From positions 1 through 40,965 of the IMG/VR virus record IMGVR_UViG_2541047735_000003: a stretch of DNA of 40,965 nucleotides; one strand, written 5' to 3'. The notes below the pieces were generated by a model that was not told the DNA's origin, made no database searches, and saw only the letters and a program-made list of their open reading frames with translations. This document shows positions 5,198 to 37,571 of this stretch, in pieces (the first letter of the stretch is position 1; each line of letters begins with the position of its first letter). The translations under genes and the position numbers were made by a program. This DNA comes from a virus. Its lineage: Duplodnaviria; Heunggongvirae; Uroviricota; Caudoviricetes.

Positions 5198-5212
5198 TTA
5201 CCGTTGAGGTAA
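5198..5212. promoter_or_regulatory. Operator palindrome TTACCGTTGAGGTAA (leftward promoter region)
   Basis: TTACC-N5-GGTAA between the leftward -35-like element and the start of the first leftward gene. Confidence 0.6.
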
Positions 5213-5259: not shown

Positions 5260-5274
5260 TTACCCATTAGGTAA
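5260..5274. promoter_or_regulatory. Operator palindrome TTACCCATTAGGTAA
   Basis: Perfect TTACC-N5-GGTAA about 20 bp upstream of the TTGACA -35-like element of the leftward promoter. Confidence 0.6.
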
Positions 5275-5331: not shown

Positions 5332-5916
5332 TTATTGTTTGTTTTTTTCGTTCTGGTTGATGACAAATTCAATGTAACTTTCGATCTTTGCTTTCTCGGT
5401 TTCGGGTAACAATGCGTAGCGCGAGCGGTCATAGTTGATGGTCGCAGGGTCGTGCGGGTGAATCAGTAATTCATAGCCGTGACGCCCGAATGCGGATGCA
5501 ACATTCTCCAGGGTGGAAATGGAAACGCTGACCTCATTGTTTAACAGGCGGCTGATTGTCACCTGGGCGACGCCGGATGCGCGGTGAAGTTTTCCCTGTG
5601 TTGAAAGGTCGCGGCTTTCGCTCATCCAGCGTTCCAGGTTGTGAGCCGCCAGCTGGCCAATGTCGCTTGGGCCGACAGGCTGAAAACCTTCCTGAGAAAG
5701 CGAGCGATCGATATCAAGCCAGTTACGGGGTTTATTGGCGGCAGCTTCAATTTTTCGCGCAACCTGGTCGCCGATAACCTTCTTGCCAAGAGCCCAGCGG
5801 TTTACCAGATTTGCCTGAGTTCCAAGTTTTTCTGCCATCCGCGTCTGAACACCATTGAATTCACGGTCGATCAAGTCGTTGAGATTTTGCCTGCGGACGT
5901 CCTGGATACTTTTCAT
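5332..5916 (-). CDS. CI-like prophage repressor with two HTH domains and no S24 peptidase domain
   Basis: 194-aa protein; N-terminal Cro/CI-type HTH (TRMAEKLGTQANLVNRWALGKK) and a second HTH-like segment (ASGVAQVTISRLLNNE); divergent from the cro-like gene across an operator-rich intergenic region; no Ala-Gly/Ser-Lys autocleavage module seen. Confidence 0.65.
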   Translation of the reverse strand: MKSIQDVRRQNLNDLIDREFNGVQTRMAEKLGTQANLVNRWALGKKVIGDQVARKIEAAANKPRNWLDIDRSLSQEGFQPVGPSDIGQLAAHNLERWMSESRDLSTQGKLHRASGVAQVTISRLLNNEVSVSISTLENVASAFGRHGYELLIHPHDPATINYDRSRYALLPETEKAKIESYIEFVINQNEKNKQ

Positions 5917-5971: not shown

Positions 5972-6034
5972 TTACCCAACAGGTAAATGCACCCCATAGG
6001 TAACTATCCTTGATTTTTGTTACCTTATGGGTGA
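5972..6034. promoter_or_regulatory. Tripartite operator between repressor and cro-like genes
   Basis: Three sites in 63 bp: TTACCCAACAGGTAA (5972-5986), GCACCCCATAGGTAA (5989-6003), TTACCTTATGGGTGA (6020-6034). Confidence 0.65.
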
Positions 6035-8278: not shown

Positions 8279-8293
8279 TTACCTATAAGGTAA
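8279..8293. promoter_or_regulatory. Operator palindrome TTACCTATAAGGTAA
   Basis: Perfect site in the intergenic region after the P-like gene. Confidence 0.55.
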
Positions 8294-8340: not shown

Positions 8341-8355
8341 TTACCTTAGAGGTAA
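8341..8355. promoter_or_regulatory. Operator palindrome TTACCTTAGAGGTAA overlapping RBS
   Basis: Perfect site ending 3 nt before ATG 8359; its right half doubles as the Shine-Dalgarno region. Confidence 0.55.
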
Positions 8356-8358
8356 ATC

Positions 8359-8706
8359 ATGAGAAAACAGATACAGGCTCTTGGTCGACTCAAAACAGGC
8401 CAGATGAACAAAACAGAATCTGCGTATTGCCAGCACCTTGAGCAGCGTAAACGTGCAGGGGAAATCGCCTGGTATCGATTCGAGGGTATCAAGCTGCGGT
8501 TAGCTGACAACACGTTCTATACGCCCGATTTCGCTGTGATGCTCGCCACCGGAGAGATGGAACTGCACGAAGTGAAAGGGGGATTCTGGACCGACGACGC
8601 CAGGGTGAAAACCAAAGTAGCCGCAGATCAGTATCCGTTCCGAATCATCGGGGTAACGGTTAAACCAAAGAAAGCAGGTGGCGGCTGGAACATCGAAGAG
8701 TTCTGA
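8359..8706 (+). CDS. PD-(D/E)xK-type nuclease, possible Holliday-junction resolvase
   Basis: 115-aa protein with YTPDFAV...GEMELHEVKGG fitting a PD...ExK nuclease motif; nin-region position; an operator palindrome overlaps its RBS. Confidence 0.45.
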   Translation: MRKQIQALGRLKTGQMNKTESAYCQHLEQRKRAGEIAWYRFEGIKLRLADNTFYTPDFAVMLATGEMELHEVKGGFWTDDARVKTKVAADQYPFRIIGVTVKPKKAGGGWNIEEF

Positions 8707-10523: not shown

Positions 10524-10538
10524 TTACCACAACGGTAA
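10524..10538. promoter_or_regulatory. Operator palindrome TTACCACAACGGTAA upstream of terminase small subunit
   Basis: Perfect site 17 nt upstream of ATG 10556. Confidence 0.55.
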
Positions 10539-10555
10539 CTATTACCACGGTGGTT

Positions 10556-11152
10556 ATGATGCCTGCTGAACCTAAAACCTATAAACGCAAATCAACGCAA
10601 TTTAAGCCACTAACAGCAATGCAGGAGGCTTATTGCCAGTCATACATCAAAACGCCTGAAAACCAGACTCAGGCAGCGATTAACGCAGGATTCTCCCCAA
10701 ATACAGCGGCAGTTAAAGCCAGTGTCATGATGCGCGATGAACGCATTCAAAAACGGATTGCCGAGTTGATGGAGGAGCGCAACAAACGAATGCGCGTCAG
10801 TGCTGATTACGTTCTCATGCGCCTGGTGGAGATCGACCAGATGGACGTGATCGACATCCTCAACGACGATGGGAGCCTTAAGCCAATCCGCGAGTGGCCG
10901 AAAATCTGGCGCACTACGCTTAGTGGCTTTGATCTGTCATCGACCATCATGAACATGAACGAGGATTCGATAGAGACAATCCTCAAAAAAATTAAATGGC
11001 CTGACAAGGTGAAGAACCTCGAACTGATTGGTAAGCACGTCGACGTCAACGCATTCAAAGAACGCCTGGATGTTAATGTGAATGTGACAATTGCTGATCG
11101 CATAGCGGCAGCCAGGAAGAGACTGAAAGAACGTCAGGATGGCAATCAGTGA
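10556..11152 (+). CDS. Terminase small subunit
   Basis: Directly upstream of and overlapping the large terminase; about 199 aa from ATG 10556 (ORF-track frame opens at TTG 10478); small-terminase-like region TPENQTQAAINAGFSPNTAAVKASVMM. Confidence 0.65.
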   Translation: MMPAEPKTYKRKSTQFKPLTAMQEAYCQSYIKTPENQTQAAINAGFSPNTAAVKASVMMRDERIQKRIAELMEERNKRMRVSADYVLMRLVEIDQMDVIDILNDDGSLKPIREWPKIWRTTLSGFDLSSTIMNMNEDSIETILKKIKWPDKVKNLELIGKHVDVNAFKERLDVNVNVTIADRIAAARKRLKERQDGNQ

Positions 11153-13688: not shown

Positions 13689-13703
13689 TTACCTGAAAGG
13701 TAA
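13689..13703. promoter_or_regulatory. Operator palindrome TTACCTGAAAGGTAA upstream of portal operon
   Basis: Perfect site about 90 bp upstream of ATG 13794; identical 15-mer to the site at 34333. Confidence 0.55.
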
Positions 13704-14014: not shown

Positions 14015-15694
14015 ATGGCGGAAACAACTAAAGAGCGATTGAACAAACAGTTCGCACAACTTGAAAGCGAGCGTCAGTCGTTCGAGCCGCACTGGCGCGA
14101 GTTGAGTGATTACATCAACCCGCGTGGTTCCCGCTTTCTGACTTCTGAGGTCAACCGTAACGATCGACGCAATACACGTATTATTGATTCGACCGGGACT
14201 ATGGCGGCGCGCACTCTCGCCAGCGGCATGATGTCAGGCATCACAAGCCCCGCGCGTCCGTGGTTTCGCCTGGCTACGCCAGATCCTGAAATGATGGATT
14301 ATGGCCCTGTTAAGTTGTGGCTTGAGGTGGTGCAGAACCGCATGAACGATATGTTCAATAAGTCGAATCTCTACCAGTCTCTTCCGCAGTTATACGGAAG
14401 CCTCGGCACATACAGCACTGGTGCAATGGCAGTGCTGGAGGATGACGAGGACATCATTCGCACAATGCCATTCCCGATAGGCAGTTACTACCTGGCTAAC
14501 TCACCTCGTGGCAGTGTGGACACCTGTTTTCGCAAGTTCTCTATGACTGTTCGTCAGCTTGTTCAGGAGTTCGGGCTAAATAACGTCAGCGAATCCGTAA
14601 AAAGCATGTGGGAAAGCGGCACCTACGAGAAGTGGATTGAAGTGATGCATTCGGTTTACCCGAACATTGACCGCGATACATCGAAGCTGGATAGCAAGAA
14701 CAAGCCATTCAAATCGGTTTATTACGAGGTTGGTGGCGATAACGACAAGTTGTTGCGTGAGTCCGGATTCGATGAGTTTCCAATTATGGCTCCGCGCTGG
14801 GAAGTTAACGGCGAAGATGTTTATGGATCATCATGCCCGGGTATGCTGGCGCTTGGACCTGTTAAGGCATTGCAGCTTCTCCAGAAGCGCAAGTCGCAGT
14901 TGATTGATAAAGCCACCAATCCGCCGATGGTTGCTCCGACTTCCCTCAAGAATCAGCGTGCCTCCCTTCTTCCTGGCGACATCACGTATATCGATCAGAT
15001 TACTGGTCAGGATGGTTTCAGGCCTGCTTATCTGGTTAACCCCAGTACAGCAGATTTGGTGGCAGACATTCAGGACACTCGTCAAATCATTAACAGCGCC
15101 TACTTTGTCGATCTGTTCATGATGTTGCAGAACATCAATACCCGCTCGATGCCTGTTGAAGCGGTGATCGAAATGAAAGAAGAAAAACTTCTGATGTTGG
15201 GGCCGGTTCTGGAGCGTCTGAACGACGAATGTCTTAATCCTCTCATTGACCGCTCTTTCTCGATGATGGTGCGTAAAAACATGCTGCCGCCACCGCCAGA
15301 CGTGATGGAAGGTATGCCCCTGAAGGTCGAATACATTTCCGTCATGGCTCAGGCGCAGAAGTCTATCGGCCTGTCCAGTCTGGCGTCCACGGTTAACTTC
15401 ATTGGTCAACTTGCGCAAGCGAAACCAGAAGCTCTCGACAAACTCAACGTTGATCAGGCGATCGATGCATTCGCTGATATGTCCGGAGTGTCTCCAACCG
15501 TCATTGTTCCGCAGGAACAGGTTGAGCAGGCTCGCCAGCAACGGGCACAGCAGCAACAGCAGCAACAAATGATGGCGATGGGGATGGCGGCGGCACAGGG
15601 TGCCAAGACGCTAAGCGAAGCTAAAACTTCGGATCCGAGTGTTTTGTCAGCTATGGCGAATGCAGTTAGTGGTCAGGGTGGGCAATCACAATGA
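14015..15694 (+). CDS. Portal (head-to-tail connector) protein
   Basis: 559-aa protein immediately after the terminase module, typical portal size; glutamine-rich C-terminus. Confidence 0.75.
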   Translation: MAETTKERLNKQFAQLESERQSFEPHWRELSDYINPRGSRFLTSEVNRNDRRNTRIIDSTGTMAARTLASGMMSGITSPARPWFRLATPDPEMMDYGPVKLWLEVVQNRMNDMFNKSNLYQSLPQLYGSLGTYSTGAMAVLEDDEDIIRTMPFPIGSYYLANSPRGSVDTCFRKFSMTVRQLVQEFGLNNVSESVKSMWESGTYEKWIEVMHSVYPNIDRDTSKLDSKNKPFKSVYYEVGGDNDKLLRESGFDEFPIMAPRWEVNGEDVYGSSCPGMLALGPVKALQLLQKRKSQLIDKATNPPMVAPTSLKNQRASLLPGDITYIDQITGQDGFRPAYLVNPSTADLVADIQDTRQIINSAYFVDLFMMLQNINTRSMPVEAVIEMKEEKLLMLGPVLERLNDECLNPLIDRSFSMMVRKNMLPPPPDVMEGMPLKVEYISVMAQAQKSIGLSSLASTVNFIGQLAQAKPEALDKLNVDQAIDAFADMSGVSPTVIVPQEQVEQARQQRAQQQQQQQMMAMGMAAAQGAKTLSEAKTSDPSVLSAMANAVSGQGGQSQ

Positions 15695-29850: not shown

Positions 29851-30222
29851 ATGAACAGAATTATATTAATGATTATTCTTATGCTTTTAGTTGTAAAATC
29901 TTTTGCAGATACTACCTCACCGTTAATGATTCAGCCTAAAAATGGGGAAACACTGGAGGATTCTAAAAAGCATACAATGGAATATTTTGGATGTATAAAA
30001 GGGCAGGCCGTAAAATACGCTAAGACAGGAGAAAGTGTTGATTCTATATCCAAAGCTTCGGTTGTGTCATGCGAGTCGTACATACAAAAGATTGCTGAAT
30101 CAAATATATACTATTTAAATTCCTCTCAAGACGGTAAGCGGAAATTTATTGGAAGGCTTAAATCAGATGGTGAAAGTTTAGCAACGAAATTTGCTATGGA
30201 TGAAAAGCTAAAAAATAAATAG
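29851..30222 (+). CDS. Secreted small protein (AT-rich moron)
   Basis: 123-aa ORF with N-terminal signal-peptide-like MNRIILMIILMLLVVKSFA; visibly AT-rich codon usage compared with flanking structural genes. Confidence 0.55.
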   Translation: MNRIILMIILMLLVVKSFADTTSPLMIQPKNGETLEDSKKHTMEYFGCIKGQAVKYAKTGESVDSISKASVVSCESYIQKIAESNIYYLNSSQDGKRKFIGRLKSDGESLATKFAMDEKLKNK

Positions 30223-30372: not shown

Positions 30373-30579
30373 TCATTTTCGTAAAGCCATACAAATCATG
30401 GCTTGCACCCCACCGGCAGAAGGTATGGTGATTTCCACCATACCCTTCGAGAAGCGTTGAGAAATCTTCTTATGTTGAGATTTCCAGTCTAGACCCATTC
30501 CCTCAACGATAGGTTTCATTGGGGTGTACGGTTCGCCGTTGTGATTGACAACATAAAGTTCTACGCCGTGGAATGGCAC
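30373..30579 (-). pseudogene. Truncated antirepressor N-terminal fragment
   Basis: 68-aa ORF whose sequence (NGEPYTPMKPIVEGMGLDWKSQHKKI) resembles the N-terminal domain of P22-type antirepressors but ends after about 68 residues, far shorter than full-length antirepressors. Confidence 0.4.
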
Positions 30580-30726
30580 GTTGATAGTAGTGACAAGTTT
30601 GAAACATCGCTGGTTGTAAGCCAGCAGATGCTCGTTATTTTACATCGCGGTACAATTTCTCGCTGGTGGCTCTTTTACACACCTTAACCAAATACGGTTG
30701 ATTTTAATGTTTTTTCGCGCTTATCA

Positions 30727-30741
30727 TTACCTTTTCGGTAA
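30727..30741. promoter_or_regulatory. Operator palindrome TTACCTTTTCGGTAA at head of antirepressor leader 1
   Basis: Perfect site followed by TTTACA, a hairpin and an intrinsic terminator. Confidence 0.55.
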
Positions 30742-30831
30742 ATTTACATCGCGCTCATCTTGTGCCATAGTAATCGGGCACTGGCAAAATCCAGTGCCGG
30801 GATTGGCGTCCCGGGTTACTAAGTGGCGCAT

Positions 30832-30854
30832 ACCACGCCAGACGTGGTTTTTTT
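30832..30854 (+). terminator. Intrinsic terminator inside antirepressor leader 1
   Basis: ACCACG-CCAGA-CGTGGT followed by seven T; about 155 bp upstream of the antirepressor start codon. Confidence 0.6.
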
Positions 30855-31010
30855 ATGCGTTAAGCACAGCTATATCCGAATTATGGTGGGCTGGGCAGGG
30901 GTCCGAAAGGACGCCGGTACCACTTAGGCCGGTACGCCAACCTTGTCCAGTTCACCACCAGTAATTGGCGTTGCGGTGGTGATTAAAATCACTAAGTGGA
31001 GATAACCACC

Positions 31011-31721
31011 ATGGCTAATGCTCAAACTGCCATCTTCAAATTTGAATCTGTTAACCCTATCCGTTCCATCATTATCGATGGCCAACCATGGTTTGTAGCC
31101 CAAGACGTTTGTAGTGCGCTGCGTATCCAAAACGTCACCCAAGCACTTGAAAAACTGGATGATGATGAAAGGTCTATGTTCAACATAGGGCATGAACATC
31201 GTGCAATTTTTGACAGCCGAGTAAAAGAGATCAACATCATCTCCGAGTCAGGCCTCTACACACTGATCCTCCGCTGCCGCGACGCAGTGACACCAGGCAC
31301 TATCCCCTACCGCTTTCGTAAATGGGTTACAGGTGAGGTTCTTCCTCAGATCCGCCGCACCGGAAGTTACATTAAAAACTCGCTCCCGCAGGAAGAACGC
31401 ATAAAGATAGTTGCCGACCAGGTAGCCAACGCCACAGCATCAGCAGTGATGCAGGCAATGAAGATAGAGAACAAAACCTACAGTGCCCCGCTGAAGCCCG
31501 GCTACCGCAGCCTGATTCATTCTCCGTCTGGTGTTCTCGGCCTGACGGAGAACTCACTGCTGATGAATCTGCTGAACCAGTTACAGGACGACGGGCACGA
31601 CGTATCGGGCGCGGCGGCGGAGCTGACCACCATGTTCTGCTACATCGTCGGTGTGAGTAAATGCCTGCGTGATATCCAGACCCACGCGGAATACATCAAC
31701 GACAAGGCAGGGTTCTTCTGA
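31011..31721 (+). CDS. Bro-N domain antirepressor-like protein (copy 1)
   Basis: N-terminal Bro-N-like motif (DGQPWFVAQDVCSALRI); C-terminal about 135 aa nearly identical to the convergent paralog 32993..33730; ATG 31011 (ORF-track frame starts 30996). Confidence 0.65.
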   Translation: MANAQTAIFKFESVNPIRSIIIDGQPWFVAQDVCSALRIQNVTQALEKLDDDERSMFNIGHEHRAIFDSRVKEINIISESGLYTLILRCRDAVTPGTIPYRFRKWVTGEVLPQIRRTGSYIKNSLPQEERIKIVADQVANATASAVMQAMKIENKTYSAPLKPGYRSLIHSPSGVLGLTENSLLMNLLNQLQDDGHDVSGAAAELTTMFCYIVGVSKCLRDIQTHAEYINDKAGFF

Positions 31722-31752
31722 CGGGCGGTGGCACAGGGATGTGCCTTTAAAT
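31308..31752 (+). repeat. Inverted repeat: 3' half of antirepressor copy 1
   Basis: About 445 bp nearly identical in inverse orientation to 32962..33406, extending about 30 bp past the stop codon. Confidence 0.65.
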
Positions 31753-31793
31753 AATTCTGTACAGATTGCAGACCGGGGGTGAATAGCGTACTA

Positions 31794-31808
31794 TTACCTT
31801 AAAGGTAA
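31794..31808. promoter_or_regulatory. Operator palindrome TTACCTTAAAGGTAA upstream of cargo operon
   Basis: Perfect site 43 bp upstream of ATG 31851. Confidence 0.55.
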
Positions 31809-31850
31809 ACCTGTTTTTATTTTATACCTGTAACTTACCGGAGATTAAAG

Positions 31851-32177
31851 ATGACAAAACTTGGATTCGTGATGAGAGGTCCGGTAAGAAGCGGAACTCA
31901 TGCAAAGCGTAGCAAGAGTCGTATTTTTACTGGTAAGGTTGTAGCACGTAAATCAGCTATTGGCTCGTTCAATAGTGAAAATGCGGCATTGCGCCATATT
32001 TTTATCAGCACAAAGCCAAGAGCATCCGCTGATGTGCATACAATGTCTATTCCTATCACAAAGAATATAAAGCGGATAAAAAAGCTCTCATCTGCAGAAT
32101 CAAAAGAGATATCTTTCCGCCAGCTTAACTCATTAGAAACGCATATGAAGGAAGAGGAATTCGATGTTTTTGAGTGA
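31851..32177 (+). CDS. Hypothetical basic protein, first gene of AT-rich cargo operon
   Basis: 108 aa, Lys/Arg-rich; GGAG upstream; overlaps the downstream gene by 14 nt; no recognisable family. Confidence 0.5.
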   Translation: MTKLGFVMRGPVRSGTHAKRSKSRIFTGKVVARKSAIGSFNSENAALRHIFISTKPRASADVHTMSIPITKNIKRIKKLSSAESKEISFRQLNSLETHMKEEEFDVFE

Positions 32178-32676
32178 GTATAGCGGGAAGGTTATACCTA
32201 CTGGTGAGTTTAAAACTGATGACTTTCTGATTTCGCTAAAAGATGCTTTTAAACAACACTGGCGTCATGGTCATCATCCTGATCTGGGAAAAGATACTCT
32301 TTTTGAAAGACCAGAGGAAGTATTAGGCTTCCATCTCAGAAAGGTTCATGTCAATATTGGTGAATATGCATCATATTCATACTCATGTACTGAACAGTGT
32401 TGGGATGAGTGGTCATATGGATTGATTGATGAACAAGGAAATTACAGGCCAAAACCAACCAGTAACGCATATCTCATATATGCAGTCAATGAAATAAGAG
32501 ATGCAGCCTTACTAGCTTATTGGGACCCGCCCGCACACACCAAAGCTAACGCAAAAGTTTGGATGGATTCCGTATTGAATTTCACAAAATTATTTCATGA
32601 ACGAACGAATACAGCTCCACTTAGTAGAAATGTTTATCCGTGGGATTATTCGTACAAATCCAAAAAGCCTGCATAG
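32164..32676 (+). CDS. YafO-like toxin candidate
   Basis: 170 aa; segments FHLRKVHVNIGE and TSNAYLIYAV...AALLAYWDPPAHTKA resemble the YafO pattern as recalled from memory; AT-rich. Confidence 0.4.
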   Translation: MFLSEYSGKVIPTGEFKTDDFLISLKDAFKQHWRHGHHPDLGKDTLFERPEEVLGFHLRKVHVNIGEYASYSYSCTEQCWDEWSYGLIDEQGNYRPKPTSNAYLIYAVNEIRDAALLAYWDPPAHTKANAKVWMDSVLNFTKLFHERTNTAPLSRNVYPWDYSYKSKKPA

Positions 32677-32757
32677 TAGTTTTTTATGGACGAAACAAAA
32701 GTCAGTGCTACACTCATTGACGCCACATTGAGGTGGTTTATAGATGGAAATTTCACA

Positions 32758-32919
32758 ATGAAAAAAGCATTTGCTGCACTGTTCGTTTTGTTGTCTCTGG
32801 TAGCTTCAACTCAGGCCTTTGCCGGTCGTTGTCAGCACGACAGCGACACTGCTGCTGACGGCTCCCGCTGCGGTGGGCGTTCTGCGGATTCCCGCCCGGG
32901 TGGCGGTGGCATTCGTTAA
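32758..32919 (+). CDS. Small secreted peptide
   Basis: Internal ATG of ORF 32686..32919 gives MKKAFAALFVLLSLVASTQAFA signal peptide followed by a short Gly/Arg/Cys-containing mature region. Confidence 0.45.
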   Translation: MKKAFAALFVLLSLVASTQAFAGRCQHDSDTAADGSRCGGRSADSRPGGGGIR

Positions 32920-32924
32920 AAACA

Positions 32925-32942
32925 AGGCCGCGAAAGCGGCCT
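32925..32942. terminator. Stem-loop between cargo operon and antirepressor copy 2
   Basis: AGGCCGC-GAAA-GCGGCCT; T-rich on the minus strand, so it likely terminates antirepressor copy 2. Confidence 0.45.
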
Positions 32943-32955
32943 GTGACATGTCACG
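32942..32955. repeat. 14-bp palindrome TGTGACATGTCACG (copy 3)
   Basis: Identical 14-mer between the cargo operon and the 3' end of antirepressor copy 2, immediately after hairpin 32925-32942. Confidence 0.6.
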
Positions 32956-32961
32956 CTAGTT

Positions 32962-33406
32962 TCGTTTTGCACGTCCCTGTGCCGCCGTTCTGTCAGAAGA
33001 ACCCTGCCTTGTCGTTGATGTATTCCGCGTGGGTCTGGATATCACGCAGGCATTTGCTCACACCGACGATGTAGCAGAACATGGTGGTCAGCTCCGCCGC
33101 CGCGCCCGATACATCGTGCCCGTCTTCCTGTAACTGGTTCAGCAGATTCATCAGCAGTGAGTTCTCCGTCAGGCCGAGAACACCAGACGGAGAATGAATC
33201 AGGCTGCGGTAGCCGGGCTTCAGCGGGGCACTGTAGGTTTTGTTCTCTATCTTCATCGCCTGCATTACTGCTGACGCCGTGGCGTTGGCTACCTGGTCGG
33301 CAACCATCTTTATGCGTTCTTCCTGCGGGAGCGAGTTTTTAATGTAACTTCCGGTGCGGCGGATCTGAGGAAGAACCTCACCTGTAACCCATTCAAGAAA
33401 TCTGAA
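32962..33406 (-). repeat. Inverted repeat: 3' half of antirepressor copy 2
   Basis: Partner of 31308..31752; antisense spurious ORFs 31372..31557 and 33157..33342 are about 90 percent identical, showing the nucleotide identity. Confidence 0.65.
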
Positions 33407-33730
33407 TGCTCTCGTTCCCTCAGTCATTGCCTCTTTGCAACGCAGAATAAGGATGTAGAGACCTGATTCTGAAACGATGGATAGTTCTTGTATTCCACCA
33501 GGGGTCTGTATTGAATACAGCCCCTTTTTGTTCCAGCCTTTTTTATCAAGTTTTCTCGCTTGTGTAACATCAATATTCAAAGCATTGCACACATCTTTGG
33601 TGACAAACCAAGGTTCTCCGTCAATCATGAACATACGGATCTGGCAGGATGACTCAAAGGAAAAGATGGAAGGTTTGGTATTCATGGCGATCACCTTTGT
33701 AGTTAGGTTAATCACCACCGCTGAGACCAA
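32993..33730 (-). CDS. Bro-N domain antirepressor-like protein (copy 2)
   Basis: N-terminal Bro-N-like motif (DGEPWFVTKDVCNALNI) divergent from copy 1; C-terminal half nearly identical to copy 1; true start probably the internal ATG (MNTKPSIF). Confidence 0.65.
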   Translation of the reverse strand: MVSAVVINLTTKVIAMNTKPSIFSFESSCQIRMFMIDGEPWFVTKDVCNALNIDVTQARKLDKKGWNKKGLYSIQTPGGIQELSIVSESGLYILILRCKEAMTEGTRAFRFLEWVTGEVLPQIRRTGSYIKNSLPQEERIKMVADQVANATASAVMQAMKIENKTYSAPLKPGYRSLIHSPSGVLGLTENSLLMNLLNQLQEDGHDVSGAAAELTTMFCYIVGVSKCLRDIQTHAEYINDKAGFF

Positions 33731-33967
33731 TCAGATGGTGGTGAACTGTGCAGAGTTGGTCTTACCGGCTACAAAGGAACCCGGCGCACCTTTCGGTGCC
33801 CCCACACAGCCCACCATAGAATAGGTGCGCTTTACACATAAAAAAACCGCTTATGCGGCATATGTGCCTCTGTAGTAATCCGGGAGACCAATCCCGGCAC
33901 TGGATTTTGCCAGTGCCCGATTACTATGGCACAAGAGGAGTGCGATGTAAATTTACCGAAAAGGTAA
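33731..33967 (-). repeat. Antirepressor leader, inverted-repeat copy A'
   Basis: Reverse complement aligns with 30715..30995, including the operator, the hairpin and a T-run terminator with a shorter CCGC-ATAA-GCGG stem. Confidence 0.6.
33953..33967. promoter_or_regulatory. Operator palindrome TTACCGAAAAGGTAA at head of antirepressor leader 2
   Basis: Perfect site; mirror-image counterpart of the site at 30727. Confidence 0.55.
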
Positions 33968-33998
33968 ATATAAGCACTCCACTTGGTAATTGCAAACC

Positions 33999-34256
33999 TT
34001 ATCTGGTTTGTTTTCGTAATTGTTCGGCACAATAGTCGAGATGTGTTTGCAGATCCTGCATAGACATCTGTGAGCTGGTGACGTAGTTAATCAGTGCAGT
34101 CAGTTCGGCAAGTGGGCCATCGACATTAAATCCATCCTTATCGAGATCCCGGAGTAATTTCATCAAGTGCGATCCCTCCACCAGTGACCTGACGCCTCCC
34201 GGCGTGTGAATCCTTTCGGTAAATCCGTCTTCCAGTGGATAGTGATACTGCTGCAT
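33999..34256 (-). CDS. Small stand-alone antirepressor C-domain homolog, LexA-box associated
   Basis: 85 aa from ATG 34256; IHTPGGVRSLVEGSHLMKLLRDLDKDGFNVDGPLAELT...DLQTH aligns with the C-terminal domain of both Bro-N proteins; a CTGT-N8-ACAG box lies about 22 bp upstream; ORF-track frame extends to 34379. Confidence 0.55.
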   Translation of the reverse strand: MQQYHYPLEDGFTERIHTPGGVRSLVEGSHLMKLLRDLDKDGFNVDGPLAELTALINYVTSSQMSMQDLQTHLDYCAEQLRKQTR

Positions 34257-34277
34257 CTTATCTTCTCCATGCAATAA

Positions 34278-34293
34278 CTGTATATTTATACAG
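34278..34293. promoter_or_regulatory. LexA (SOS) box CTGTATATTTATACAG
   Basis: Matches the CTGT-N8-ACAG consensus with an AT-rich spacer; 22 bp upstream of ATG 34256 on the minus strand. Confidence 0.6.
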
Positions 34294-34332
34294 TAGCAAA
34301 TAATTTGTTTGCTATCCAGCACGTTTTGCAAA

Positions 34333-34347
34333 TTACCTGAAAGGTAA
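34333..34347. promoter_or_regulatory. Operator palindrome TTACCTGAAAGGTAA between small antirepressor gene and tailspike
   Basis: Perfect site in the divergent intergenic region. Confidence 0.55.
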
Positions 34348-34451
34348 TATCTATTCGTATTTACAGTCTTTCTATCCATATGTGGTTTTCCAGGTAATAG
34401 AATAACCAGATATGCGGCGCAACGGGTGCTGCGACTATCTGGAGATTTAAC

Positions 34452-37400
34452 ATGACGGTCTCAACCGAAGTTGACCACAACGAATACACCGGTAACGGCG
34501 TTACGACATCGTTTCCGTATACTTTTCGAATTTTCAGAAAATCAGACCTGGTTGTTCAGGTGTCTGACCTGAACGGGAACGTAACAGAATTGGTTCTGGA
34601 TACCGGTTATACGGTAACTGGGGCGGGCACTTATAGTGGCGGTGCAGTGGTTCTTCCGTCGCCGCTTGCTGCTGGCTGGCGAATCACGATAGAGCGTGTG
34701 CTTGATGTGGTGCAGGAGACAGACCTTCGCAATCAGGGAAAATTTTTCCCCGAAGTGCATGAAGATGCCTTTGACTACCTGACGATGCTGATCCAGCAAT
34801 GTTTTGGGTGGTTCAGACGTGCATTGATGAAACCATCTTTGCTTGCAAAATATTACGATGCAAAGCAAAACAAAATTTCTAACCTTGCAGATCCATCATT
34901 TGAGCAGGACGCTGTAAATAATCGCTCAATGCGTAATTATGTCGATGCTGCAATCGCCGGGGTTGTTGGTGGTTTTGGTTGGTTTATTCAGTATGGTTCT
35001 GGGGCTGTGTACCGAACGTTCCAGGATAAAATGCGTGATGCTATTAGCCCCAAAGATTTTGGAGCTGTTGGTGATGGTATAAATGACGATTCCACTGCAA
35101 TAAGCGCGTGCCTTGAAGCCTCATCTCCAGGTTATAAAATTGACGGATTAGGGCTTACTTTTAAAGTATCAACTCTTCCGGATGTCAGTCGATTTAAAAA
35201 TGCTCGTTTTTTATTTGAGAGAATACCGGGCCAGCCTCTTTTTTATGCTTCTGAAGATTTTATCCAGGGAGAGTTATTTAAAATTACAGATACACCGTGG
35301 TACAACGCCTGGACGCAGGATAAAACGTTTGTATATGACAATGTCATCTATGCGCCTTTTATGGCTGGAGACCGCCATGGTGTAAATAACCTCCATGTTG
35401 CATGGGTTCGCTCAGGAGATGACGGGAAGACCTGGACAACGCCGGAATGGCTTACAGATTTACATGAAAACTATCCCACAGTTAACTATCACTGCATGAG
35501 TATGGGGGTTGTCAGAAATCGCCTTTTTGCTGTAATTGAGACGCGGACCGTGAGCGGAAATAAACTGCAGGTTGCAGAGTTGTGGGATCGCCCAATGAGT
35601 CGCAGCCTTCGCGTTTATGGTGGTATAACGAAAGCAGCAAATCAGCAAGTCGCTTATATTCGCATTACTGATCACGGATTATTTGCTGGTGATTTTGTCA
35701 ACTTCTCAAACTCTGGTGTTACAGGTGTTACCGGGAATATGACGGTGACTACTGTTATTGATAAAAATACTTTTACAGTTACGACGCAAAATACCCAGGA
35801 TGTGGATCAGAATAACGAGGGTAGATACTGGAGTTTTGGTACATCATTTCACTCGTCACCATGGAGAAAAACCAGTCTTGGAACTATTCCTTCTTTTGTT
35901 GACGGAAGCACTCCTGTTACTGAGATTCACAGTTTTGCGACGATTAGCGATAACAGTTTTGCTGTTGGCTACCATAATGGTGATATTGGTCCACGCGAGC
36001 TTGGGATACTCTATTTCTCTGATGCTTTCGGTTCTCCTGGTAGCTTTGTTCGCAGACGCATACCTGCAGAATATGAGGCGAATGCATCTGAGCCATGTGT
36101 AAAATATTATGATGGCATTCTGTATCTGACGACCAGGGGGACATTAAGTACTCAACCCGGTAGTTCATTGCACAGAAGCTCTGATTTAGGTACATCATGG
36201 AATTCTCTTCGCTTCCCAAATAATGTTCATCACTCAAACCTTCCTTTTGCCAAAGTTGGCGATGAGCTGATTATTTTTGGCAGTGAGCGCGCATTTGGTG
36301 AGTGGGAAGGAGGAGAACCTGATAACCGTTATGCAGGAAATTATCCAAGAACATTTATGACCAGAGTTAACGTCAATGAGTGGAGTCTGGATAATGTAGA
36401 GTGGGTTAATGTTACTGATCAGATTTATCAGGGCGGAATAGTTAACTCTGCGGTTGGTGTTGGTTCAGTTTGTATCAAAGACAACTGGCTGTACTACATT
36501 TTCGGTGGGGAAGACTTTCTAAACCCATGGAGCATAGGGGATAACAACAGAAAATATCCTTATTTTCACGATGGTCACCCGGCTGATTTGTATTGTTTCA
36601 GGGTGAAAATTAAACAGGAAGAATTTGTTTCAAGGGATTTTGTCTACGGAGCCACTCCTAACAGAACGCTTCCTACTTTTATGTCGACGTCAGGCGTGAG
36701 GACGGTTCCTGTACCCGTTGATTTCACAGATGATGTTGCCGTCCAGTCACTGACTGTCCATGCAGGTACATCAGGACAAGTTCGCGCGGAAGTCAAACTT
36801 GAGGGTAATTACGCCATTATTGCGAAGAAAGTACCGTCTGATGATGTTACCGCTCAGAGATTAATCGTTAGCGGCGGTGAAACAACGTCTTCAGCAGATG
36901 GTGCAATGATAACGTTGCATGGTTCCGGAAGCAGTACTCCACGTCGCGCGGTATATAACGCACTCGAACATCTTTTTGAGAACGGAGATGTTAAACCTTA
37001 TCTTGATAATGTAAATGCTCTTGGTGGTCCGGGAAACAGGTTCTCGACAGTTTATCTTGGCTCCAATCCTGTGGTTACCAGTGACGGAACATTAAAGACA
37101 GAGCCGGTCTCTCCTGACGAAGCATTGCTGGATGCCTGGGGTGACGTCAGGTATATCGCTTATAAATGGCTGAACGCTGTCGCTATAAAGGGGGAAGAAG
37201 GGGCGAGGATACATCATGGTGTAATCGCGCAGCAACTTCGTGATGTTCTTATTTCTCACGGACTCATGGAAGAAGAAAGCACAACATGCCGCTATGCCTT
37301 TCTTTGCTATGACGATTATCCCGCAGTATATGATGACGTCATTACTGGCCAAAGGGAAATGCCGCTGACTGATAATGACGGGAGCATCATTGTTGATGAG

Positions 37401-37571
37401 GATGATAATCCAGTGATGGTAATAGAAGACATCATTGAGCGCGTTGAAATAACGCCAGCAGGATCTAGATGGGGGGTCAGACCTGATCTCTTATTCTATA
37501 TCGAGGCAGCATGGCAGCGCAGAGAAATGGATAAGATAAAAGAGCGGGTTCAGTCTCTGGAAGAACGTTAA
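34452..37571 (+). CDS. Tailspike / receptor-binding protein with sialidase-like domain and C-terminal chaperone
   Basis: 1039 aa; two Asp-box motifs (SGDDGKTW, SSDLGTSW); C-terminal SDGTLKTEPV...HHGVIAQQLRDVL resembles the autoproteolytic S74 chaperone domain of endosialidase-type tail proteins. Confidence 0.8.
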   Translation: MTVSTEVDHNEYTGNGVTTSFPYTFRIFRKSDLVVQVSDLNGNVTELVLDTGYTVTGAGTYSGGAVVLPSPLAAGWRITIERVLDVVQETDLRNQGKFFPEVHEDAFDYLTMLIQQCFGWFRRALMKPSLLAKYYDAKQNKISNLADPSFEQDAVNNRSMRNYVDAAIAGVVGGFGWFIQYGSGAVYRTFQDKMRDAISPKDFGAVGDGINDDSTAISACLEASSPGYKIDGLGLTFKVSTLPDVSRFKNARFLFERIPGQPLFYASEDFIQGELFKITDTPWYNAWTQDKTFVYDNVIYAPFMAGDRHGVNNLHVAWVRSGDDGKTWTTPEWLTDLHENYPTVNYHCMSMGVVRNRLFAVIETRTVSGNKLQVAELWDRPMSRSLRVYGGITKAANQQVAYIRITDHGLFAGDFVNFSNSGVTGVTGNMTVTTVIDKNTFTVTTQNTQDVDQNNEGRYWSFGTSFHSSPWRKTSLGTIPSFVDGSTPVTEIHSFATISDNSFAVGYHNGDIGPRELGILYFSDAFGSPGSFVRRRIPAEYEANASEPCVKYYDGILYLTTRGTLSTQPGSSLHRSSDLGTSWNSLRFPNNVHHSNLPFAKVGDELIIFGSERAFGEWEGGEPDNRYAGNYPRTFMTRVNVNEWSLDNVEWVNVTDQIYQGGIVNSAVGVGSVCIKDNWLYYIFGGEDFLNPWSIGDNNRKYPYFHDGHPADLYCFRVKIKQEEFVSRDFVYGATPNRTLPTFMSTSGVRTVPVPVDFTDDVAVQSLTVHAGTSGQVRAEVKLEGNYAIIAKKVPSDDVTAQRLIVSGGETTSSADGAMITLHGSGSSTPRRAVYNALEHLFENGDVKPYLDNVNALGGPGNRFSTVYLGSNPVVTSDGTLKTEPVSPDEALLDAWGDVRYIAYKWLNAVAIKGEEGARIHHGVIAQQLRDVLISHGLMEEESTTCRYAFLCYDDYPAVYDDVITGQREMPLTDNDGSIIVDEDDNPVMVIEDIIERVEITPAGSRWGVRPDLLFYIEAAWQRREMDKIKERVQSLEER

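Follow-up and report, generated by a model that had tools for sequence, protein, structure and literature searches.

The caudoviral record IMGVR_UViG_2541047735_000003, whose 40,965 nucleotides (nt) were analysed as a single window, carries an AT-rich cassette of two genes that may encode a toxin-antitoxin (TA) pair, formed by a divergent YafO-type toxin and a partner unlike the known antitoxins (Table 1). The two open reading frames (ORFs), of 108 and 170 amino acids (aa), follow one another on the plus strand, each behind a Shine-Dalgarno sequence (GGAG at 31840-31843 for the 108-aa ORF and GAGGAA at 32154-32159 for the 170-aa ORF), and the ORF listing bears out the 14-nt overlap in which an initial annotation of this DNA had recognised a TA-like layout. 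The arrangement is conserved in relatives: 35 cassettes from several genera, which represent 25 distinct upstream regions, keep both ORFs, the overlap and a promoter palindrome described below. The 108-type partner and the toxin are always found paired, with the 14-nt overlap, in Serratia, Citrobacter and Escherichia contigs and in IMG/VR contigs; other paired contigs hold toxin homologues that their sources name in Salmonella, Enterobacter and Raoultella. The carriers in Escherichia, Citrobacter, Serratia and other hosts are epsilon15-like prophages. Two small, adjacent, co-oriented genes that overlap and are inherited together make up the generic layout of a type II TA module.

Homology to phages TL-2011b and phiv142-3 ends at 31809/31810, just past the operator, and returns at 32680, and the exchangeable unit therefore comprises about 870 bp and only the two genes. 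The low G+C content of this cargo and its position between antirepressor repeats had both been pointed out in the initial annotation. Both observations stand, with 38.9% G+C over 31810-32685 against 49.8% for the whole window, and with inverted-repeat arms of 504 nt each, 91% complementary, that enclose the cargo exactly. Both arms are the C-terminal-encoding halves of two Bro-N antirepressor genes, as judged by Bro-N and anti-repressor family matches.

Other cassettes occupy the same position. Within the same framework, and behind the same promoter and operator, TL-2011b has a 59-aa partner and a 181-aa YafO-family toxin (L002, 3110-3884), and phiv142-3 has proteins of 55 and 146 aa (L013, 2610-3265), the larger of which shows YafO-like motifs by eye, but no Pfam match at E <= 1 and an hhalign E value of 0.14. 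A sister clade of three IMG/VR contigs (L067 1990-3001, L068 2053-3007 and L069 1990-3001) encodes a 168-aa toxin and a partner of 152-171 aa, with an 11-nt overlap. This comparison marks the locus as a hot spot of exchange, where one framework accommodates at least three alternative two-gene cassettes. Phages phiV10 and ZX5 are without the cassette. Among 5426 complete Escherichia coli genomes, portions of the 1.3-kb stretch (the framework) are present in 533, and 69 of those 533 have the cassette; the same 69 carry the entire stretch, at 97-100% coverage and about 99% identity.

The cargo had also been thought to include a secreted peptide. The 53-aa product encoded downstream does carry a Sec-type signal peptide, which ends in AFA and leaves a mature part of about 31 aa with two cysteines (the ATG at 32758 is internal to a longer ORF, and RefSeq labels the product hypothetical). 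Its gene is not cargo, however, with 57% G+C and with DNA that is common to TL-2011b, phiv142-3, HEMP4 and EC.W1-9 whatever the cassette. Judged by this sharing, the peptide gene, which phages with other cassettes or with none also have, and the G+C-rich hairpin that follows it are conserved framework. The sequence matching this hairpin carries a terminator annotation in phiV10. Between the toxin and peptide genes (32676-32758) the window has no terminator stem, unlike the TL-2011b and phiv142-3 cassettes, each of which has its own, and the peptide is thus probably co-transcribed with the pair in the window. On the other side of the cassette, the hairpin GGCACA-GGGA-TGTGCC, followed by TTTAAATAATT, is kept in TL-2011b, phiv142-3 and Citrobacter loci; it was left unscored by the terminator scan and is possibly a weak terminator.

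An Rfam search of 31500-33100 at a permissive threshold gave a chance-level match only and no sign of an RNA antitoxin. As a separate observation, a promoter-like site (32064-32091) and a terminator-like site (31984-31996) on the minus strand lie within the partner gene and could delimit an antisense RNA (about 70 nt); such sites are as frequent as expected by chance, and conservation of the gene is lowest in this region.

Table 1. Coordinates of the cassette, its framework and the operator copies in the window
Feature	Coordinates	Strand	Basis or remark
Exchangeable AT-rich cassette (true cargo)	31810-32679	+	Homology break points and G+C content
Partner gene, 108 aa, probable antitoxin	31851-32177	+	phrog_5933 (unknown function)
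Toxin gene, 170 aa	32164-32676	+	Divergent YafO-family (RelE/BECR-fold) putative mRNA endoribonuclease
Predicted cassette promoter, sigma-70-like	31766-31794	+	-35 TTGCAG 31766-31771, 17-nt spacer, -10 TACTAT 31789-31794
Operator TTACC-N5-GGTAA	31794-31808		Copy of the phage-wide repressor motif
Signal-peptide protein gene, 53 aa	32758-32919	+	phrog_14503 'membrane associated protein', 2e-40
G+C-rich hairpin	32925-32942	-	Intrinsic terminator score on the minus strand only (convergent antirepressor gene); no plus-strand T-run
Hairpin GGCACA-GGGA-TGTGCC	31730-31745	+	Directly past the stop codon of the left antirepressor gene
Left inverted-repeat arm	31219-31722	+	3´ half of Bro-N antirepressor gene 30996-31721
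Right inverted-repeat arm	32992-33495	-	3´ half of antirepressor gene 32993-33730 (minus strand)
Prophage repressor gene, 194 aa, two helix-turn-helix (HTH) motifs	5332-5916	-	HTH_3 match; presumed operator binder
Operators	5198-5212, 5260-5274		Left of the repressor gene
Operators	5972-5986, 6020-6034		Right of the repressor gene
Operators	8279-8293, 8341-8355		Before DUF1064 gene 8359-8706
Operators	10524-10538, 10542-10556		Near the start of the terminase small-subunit gene
Operator	13689-13703		Upstream of the portal-like gene at 14015
Operators	30727-30741, 33953-33967		Before the two antirepressor genes
Operator	34333-34347		Near the tailspike gene

The YafO-like protein and its partner

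The resemblance of the 170-aa protein to YafO, pointed out in the initial annotation, proved to reflect family kinship, though it is not new: RefSeq/PGAP already labels the product a 'type II toxin-antitoxin system YafO family toxin'. The profile search that had been proposed for both proteins matched the 170-aa protein to Pfam PF13957 (YafO_toxin) at E 7e-4 and 20.1 bits, over model positions 7-100 of 101, which is below threshold, and gave no significant Pfam match for the partner. All 14 relatives of the 170-aa protein match PF13957 at E <= 0.01, and TL-2011b gp44, encoded in the same genomic slot and with 33% identity (E 1e-27), exceeds the gathering score of that family at 26.3 bits. When the toxin family profile was compared with 15 canonical YafO sequences by hhalign, the 111 aligned columns gave E 5.9e-5 and paired query positions 18-147 with YafO 16-133, a match that spans nearly all of canonical YafO.

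A joint alignment of three phage clades with canonical YafO has G42, D44, H62, L104, Y106 and H125 invariant and K or R at position 43; in the hhalign comparison, YafO H60 and H85 correspond to K60 and Y103 of the 170-aa protein. We know of no experimentally defined catalytic residues in YafO. Compared with canonical YafO, the phage toxins are also longer by an insertion and a C-terminal extension, each of about 25 aa. The predicted structure has a RelE/BECR-type fold. The rate of nonsynonymous substitution (dN) in the toxin gene is 0.15-0.22 while that of synonymous substitution (dS) is saturated, which indicates strong purifying selection. A sequence search with the family profile against PDB chains found no match, NCBIfam gave no meaningful matches, and PADLOC-DB v2 had no match for the 170-aa, 108-aa or 53-aa protein at E <= 1. 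On the strength of the family comparisons, we regard the 170-aa protein as a distant YafO-family member within the RelE/BECR superfamily.

The upstream partner, a hypothetical protein in RefSeq, is as basic as the initial annotation had it. Its pI is 10.6, and it has 21 K+R against 10 D+E, with 8 K/R and no D/E among residues 1-30; the charge is positive in the N-terminal two thirds and the tail is acidic. It has no significant match in Pfam, NCBIfam or PADLOC, its family profile matches no PDB chain, and the family is tiny, with 12 clusters among 1.84 billion representatives in an exhaustive profile search. The N-terminus, MTKLGFV(M/A)(R/K)G, is nearly invariant (MTKLGFVMRG in the window) and is followed by a KRRK tract and then a variable basic middle, and the alignment has a conserved C-terminus, ISAExSxELSFRMLNSLEDRMKEExFDxFE. 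AlphaFold2 (AF2) modelled only helix 81-107 with confidence, and the rest of the protein is predicted to be disordered.

The partner diverges faster than the toxin, with 33-50% identity against 66-82%. The sister-clade toxin is 43-44% identical to the 170-aa protein, and the N-terminus of its partner is entirely unrelated to the 108-aa family; the last 37 residues of the sister-clade partner align end to end with that family (hhalign E 0.0036) and are the only shared part. Such a pattern would be expected of an antitoxin that binds its toxin through the C-terminal helix. For the same genome pairs, dS is 0.8-1.1 in the partner gene and saturated in the adjacent toxin gene, and the DNA of the partner gene hardly varies over its first 30 nt. 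The low dS of the partner hints at an added nucleotide-level constraint or at differing recombination histories.

The partner had been described as unlike the usual YafN/Phd-type antitoxins, and our comparisons agree. It gave no alignment with YafN by BLASTP, and hhalign against 27 YafN sequences from loci adjoining YafO gave an E value of 0.55. A resemblance by eye between its C-terminal end EEEFDVFE and the YafN end DDDFNDFKE, each running to the stop codon, was rejected as indistinguishable from chance, the last 36 columns scoring 6.6 against 8.6 +/- 2.2 for column-shuffled alignments. Family and fold searches found no partner variant with a recognisable DNA-binding domain, whereas YafN matches PhdYeFM (PF02604), and the 108-aa protein does not qualify as the Phd/YefM-type antitoxin of a YafN-YafO module.

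The promoter palindrome and its prophage setting

The promoter predicted ahead of the pair agrees with 7 of the 12 consensus positions. It was missed by a generic promoter scan (threshold 9/12) and was detected by alignment and a relaxed scan; homologous cassettes have the same promoter geometry in front of them, as in TTTACG-17-TAAGAT and TTGCAG-17-TAATAT. At its 3´ end stands a 15-bp palindrome, TTACCTTAAAGGTAA, 57 nt upstream of the first ATG. The half-sites TTACC and GGTAA are invariant in the alignment of upstream regions while the 5-bp spacer is variable, and the palindrome is found 53-59 nt before the partner ATG in every one of the 25 distinct 108-type upstream regions, without a mismatch in 22, with a single mismatch in 2 and with two mismatches in 1. 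It also precedes cassettes with wholly different partners, those of TL-2011b, phiv142-3 and the sister clade; in the sister clade the operator lies some 154 nt upstream, joined in L068 by a second copy at 29 nt upstream.

This palindrome had been taken for an operator of the cargo's own. The site is real, but the window contains 13 copies of it (11 exact and 2 with one mismatch, against 0.69 expected). In the RefSeq feature table of epsilon15 (NC_004775.2), ATTACC-N5-GGTAAT sites are labelled 'protein_bind: repressor', and phiV10 has 8 copies of the operator in equivalent places. Given this multi-copy distribution and the epsilon15 label, the operator appears to belong to the prophage repressor and not to the cassette, which would also explain why a single palindrome is conserved beside partners that have unrelated N-termini and no DNA-binding domain. 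By its pattern and distribution, the palindrome is an epsilon15-type repressor operator, to which the repressor is predicted to bind, and the spread of its copies suggests that the repressor directly touches many transcription units. A DNA-binding antitoxin that autoregulates through an operator of its own is not what we find here, the sole promoter palindrome being the phage-wide repressor operator.

The repressor gene matches phiV10p40 ('putative transcriptional repressor, two HTH motifs') in size and position. Overexpression of the repressor blocks the lytic cycle in phage ZX5, whose authors call it identical to that of phiV10 (PMC9782041). At four operators, those at 5198 (minus strand), 30727, 33953 and 31794, the last base of a -10-like hexamer is the first T of the operator. 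The first of these sites is the leftward early promoter (TTGACA-17-AATTAT), the second and third are the antirepressor promoters, and the fourth is the cassette promoter. Two operator pairs, 5198/5260 and 8279/8341, are spaced 62 bp apart.

The virion module of the window is 98% identical to those of phiV10, ZX5, phiv142-3 and TL-2011b, and on this comparison the window is a phiV10/epsilon15-like (Uetakevirus) E. coli prophage. A P22-like identity was dropped, as the comparison places the prophage with phiV10/epsilon15. The locus has the internal virion protein genes on one side and a tailspike gene (34452-37571, plus strand) on the other. A near-identical gene of avian pathogenic E. coli (APEC) O2:K1:H7 is labelled in RefSeq as an endosialidase-type (K1 capsule-degrading) tailspike, and we type the window gene accordingly; the prophage would therefore be an epsilon15-like one with K1 specificity.

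When the region 30375-33975 is compared with APEC E18055 (L001), TL-2011b (L002) and phiv142-3 (L013), the cassette of the window runs the opposite way along the virion-to-tailspike axis, which is consistent with inversion through recombination of the inverted antirepressor repeats. The symmetry is prolonged beyond the antirepressor arms by an outer pair of inverted repeats (30719-30821 and 33873-33975). Antirepressor debris is found nearby in the form of a 68-aa N-terminal P22_AR_N fragment (30373-30579, minus strand), and a 126-aa ORF encodes a solo antirepressor C-terminal domain (phrog_450; 33999-34379, minus strand). Directly after the internal virion protein gene lies an AT-rich 123-aa ORF (29851-30222, plus strand) with an N-terminal signal-like hydrophobic segment and no significant match in Pfam or PHROG, which may be another moron.

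Models for the cassette and comparison with known systems

We suggest that the cassette encodes a type II-like TA pair, consisting of a divergent YafO-type toxin and an antitoxin that has no DNA-binding domain, with transcription gated by the prophage repressor; we give this reading an even chance of being correct. The cassette is an accessory, exchangeable one that occupies the antirepressor region of an epsilon15/phiV10-like prophage. Its 108-aa protein would be synthesised first, and translation of the toxin would be coupled to it through the 14-nt overlap. The toxin, a YafO-like endoribonuclease of RelE fold, would halt translation by cutting mRNA under translation on the ribosome, by analogy with E. 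coli YafO, which cuts translated mRNA only (PMC2814082). Neutralisation would most likely occur when the disordered partner wraps its conserved acidic C-terminal helix (about residues 72-108) around the toxin. Control of transcription would fall to the two-HTH prophage repressor and not to the partner, through a single operator abutting the -10 hexamer, as arranged at the leftward early promoter and both antirepressor promoters. The cassette would then be low or off in a stable lysogen and would come on together with the antirepressors upon infection or induction, the promoter architecture favouring expression at derepression over expression in the quiet lysogen.

The gene anatomy, the co-inheritance, the family relationship of the toxin and the identity and distribution of the operator are established; from these we infer toxicity, neutralisation via the C-terminal helix, repressor binding and the timing of expression. 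The role of the cassette may be abortive or competitive killing; it may also lie in host shut-off or in a commitment step between lysis and lysogeny, or amount to simple addiction. The turnover at the hot spot is our argument for a function in conflict.

Several points weigh against this model of a repressor-gated TA pair. The 170-aa protein is under the PF13957 gathering score (20.1 vs 25 bits), and the hhalign probability for its family against YafO is only 65%, a moderate value for which we place it as a distant YafO member. Its structure model is of moderate quality and leaves the inserted segment 64-100 unmodelled, and Foldseek searches of PDB and BFVD returned nothing at E <= 0.001 (the top PDB match was HigB1 at E 0.07, and BFVD gave none). 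The dN/dS of the partner is about 0.5, with a dS oddly below that of the toxin, and the model does not account for the partner's invariant N-terminus and basic tract. Binding of the partner to the toxin is deduced from anatomy and conservation only, and binding of the repressor to the palindrome from the epsilon15 annotation and from position. Finally, a single operator may bring about partial repression only, with some expression in the lysogen.

A bolder version of the same model, which we offer tentatively and hold to be doubtful, is that transcriptional control has been outsourced. The antitoxins would be devoid of a DNA-binding domain, by loss or from the outset, since the cassette plugs into the master repressor of the prophage through a copy of its operator. 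Synthesis of the mRNA-cutting toxin would thus be coupled straight to the lysis-lysogeny switch, and the toxin would fire with the antirepressors. If this is true, the cassette would be a commitment or fail-safe device, killing for example cells in which induction is aborted or the switch is hijacked by a foreign antirepressor, and not a standing defence.

Standing defence is what a lysogen-protecting abortive infection system would provide: basal expression in the lysogen would yield a TA complex, a superinfecting phage that blocks host expression would let the labile, disordered antitoxin decay, and the freed RNase would abort the infection. The turnover of at least three alternative cassettes at one hot spot is typical of conflict genes, the cargo is AT-rich and foreign, the cassette is present in just 69 of the 533 framework-bearing complete E. 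coli genomes, RelE-superfamily TA modules have been reported to be active in abortive infection (reviewed in PMC11980606), and a single operator without a cooperative partner site may leak. We nevertheless think this explanation rather unlikely. PADLOC returned no match, and the promoter-operator geometry is that of the antirepressor and leftward early promoters, which are necessarily shut in a lysogen; such an architecture suggests repression in the lysogen and fits poorly with a constitutive lysogen defence.

That geometry, common to the early and antirepressor promoters, would suit a function in the lytic phase, where the toxin would act after derepression as an early nuclease for host mRNA shut-off or for commitment of the switch, with the partner as a timer or specificity factor. 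The cassette does stand among the antirepressor genes, and canonical yafNO is likewise induced by DNA damage, through the upstream LexA-controlled dinB promoter (PMC2814082). We consider a lytic function unlikely all the same, since the cassette is dispensable (phiV10 and ZX5 do without it) and is replaced by other cassettes, which would be unusual for a core lytic function, and since an unspecific ribosome-dependent RNase would cut phage mRNA too.

It is quite improbable that the pair is a classical, self-contained type II operon, in which the partner would bind the palindrome via its N-terminus and basic tract and autoregulate with the toxin as co-repressor. Such an operon would fit a palindrome that overlaps the promoter at a constant 53-59 nt from the ATG across cassettes, a partner whose N-terminal decapeptide and KRRK tract are conserved as well as the palindrome arms, and a basic charge suited to nucleic-acid binding. 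The prophage, however, has 13 copies of the same palindrome, some of which flank the repressor gene or stand at the antirepressor promoters; the palindrome is an annotated repressor site in epsilon15, where the cassette was not seen, is present in 8 copies in the cassette-free phiV10, and is kept beside unrelated partners of 59, 55 and 152-171 aa. The partner, moreover, has no detected DNA-binding fold or family and is predicted by AF2 to be disordered.

We give very little credence to the notion that the 108-aa ORF is a non-functional leader, or the pair a decaying remnant in which only the YafO-like gene matters, as might be read from the partner's dN/dS of about 0.5, its poorly conserved middle, its low-confidence AF2 model and its place in no known family, because an open frame of 100-120 aa is maintained in AT-rich DNA among proteins of 33-50% identity, indels are in frame, the Shine-Dalgarno sequence, the ATG and the 14-nt overlap are conserved, some synonymous changes have left the N- and C-terminal segments invariant, and the C-terminal module is shared with the sister clade.

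If the model of a TA pair gated by the prophage repressor holds, TA cassettes can exist as no more than an effector and its neutraliser, regulated by a circuit borrowed from the carrier. The unlikeness of the partner to known antitoxins would be explained, and expression of the toxin would be predicted at prophage derepression. The locus is a compact exchange hot spot in epsilon15/phiV10-like E. coli prophages, including those of K1 and STEC lineages (the latter making Shiga toxin), and could serve as a natural test bed for different cassettes behind one repressor-controlled promoter. The partner family phrog_5933 could be labelled a putative antitoxin, and the palindrome should not be taken for a TA operator.

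The locus is a variation on a known theme and was half-annotated already: a YafO-family module with a non-canonical antitoxin under phage-repressor control. Its relation to PfiT/PfiA of the Pseudomonas Pf4 prophage is at the level of the fold only, as the phage type (an inovirus), the host and the toxin family all differ. To the RelE, HigB, YoeB and YafQ mRNA interferases it is likewise distant, with no sequence-level match to solved structures and non-significant Foldseek matches; the antitoxins of these systems carry ribbon-helix-helix (RHH), HTH or Phd DNA-binding domains, unlike the 108-aa partner. The operators of epsilon15 have identical half-sites and a 5-bp spacer, and are clustered around the repressor gene and before accessory and tail-region genes; in the records examined, such sites are not annotated as controlling a TA cassette. 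TL-2011b gp45/gp44 and phiv142-3 Orf9/Orf10 share with the window cassette the framework, the promoter, the operator, the downstream 53-aa gene and the swap boundaries, and differ from it in their terminator stems and in upstream partners (59 aa and 55 aa) with no similarity to the 108-aa protein.

The nearest characterised comparison is YafN-YafO of E. coli K-12 (dinB-yafN-yafO-yafP). The phage toxin is only about 22% identical to YafO and falls under the Pfam threshold, with the insertion and C-terminal extension described above, and the partner, unlike YafN (PF02604, Phd/YefM-type), has no detectable DNA-binding domain and no significant YafN similarity, its C-terminus included. Canonical yafNO also has a proximal promoter autoregulated by YafN, whereas a private operator was not seen in the window cassette. 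In both systems, the antitoxin gene, putative in the phage, precedes the toxin gene, and the toxins have in common the motif set G-[KR]-D, H, [TS]-[SN], L-x-Y and P..A-H together with a RelE-type fold, predicted for the phage protein. Both also appear to take a repressor from outside the pair, LexA at the upstream dinB promoter in yafNO (PMC2814082) and, as the operator predicts, the phage repressor here.

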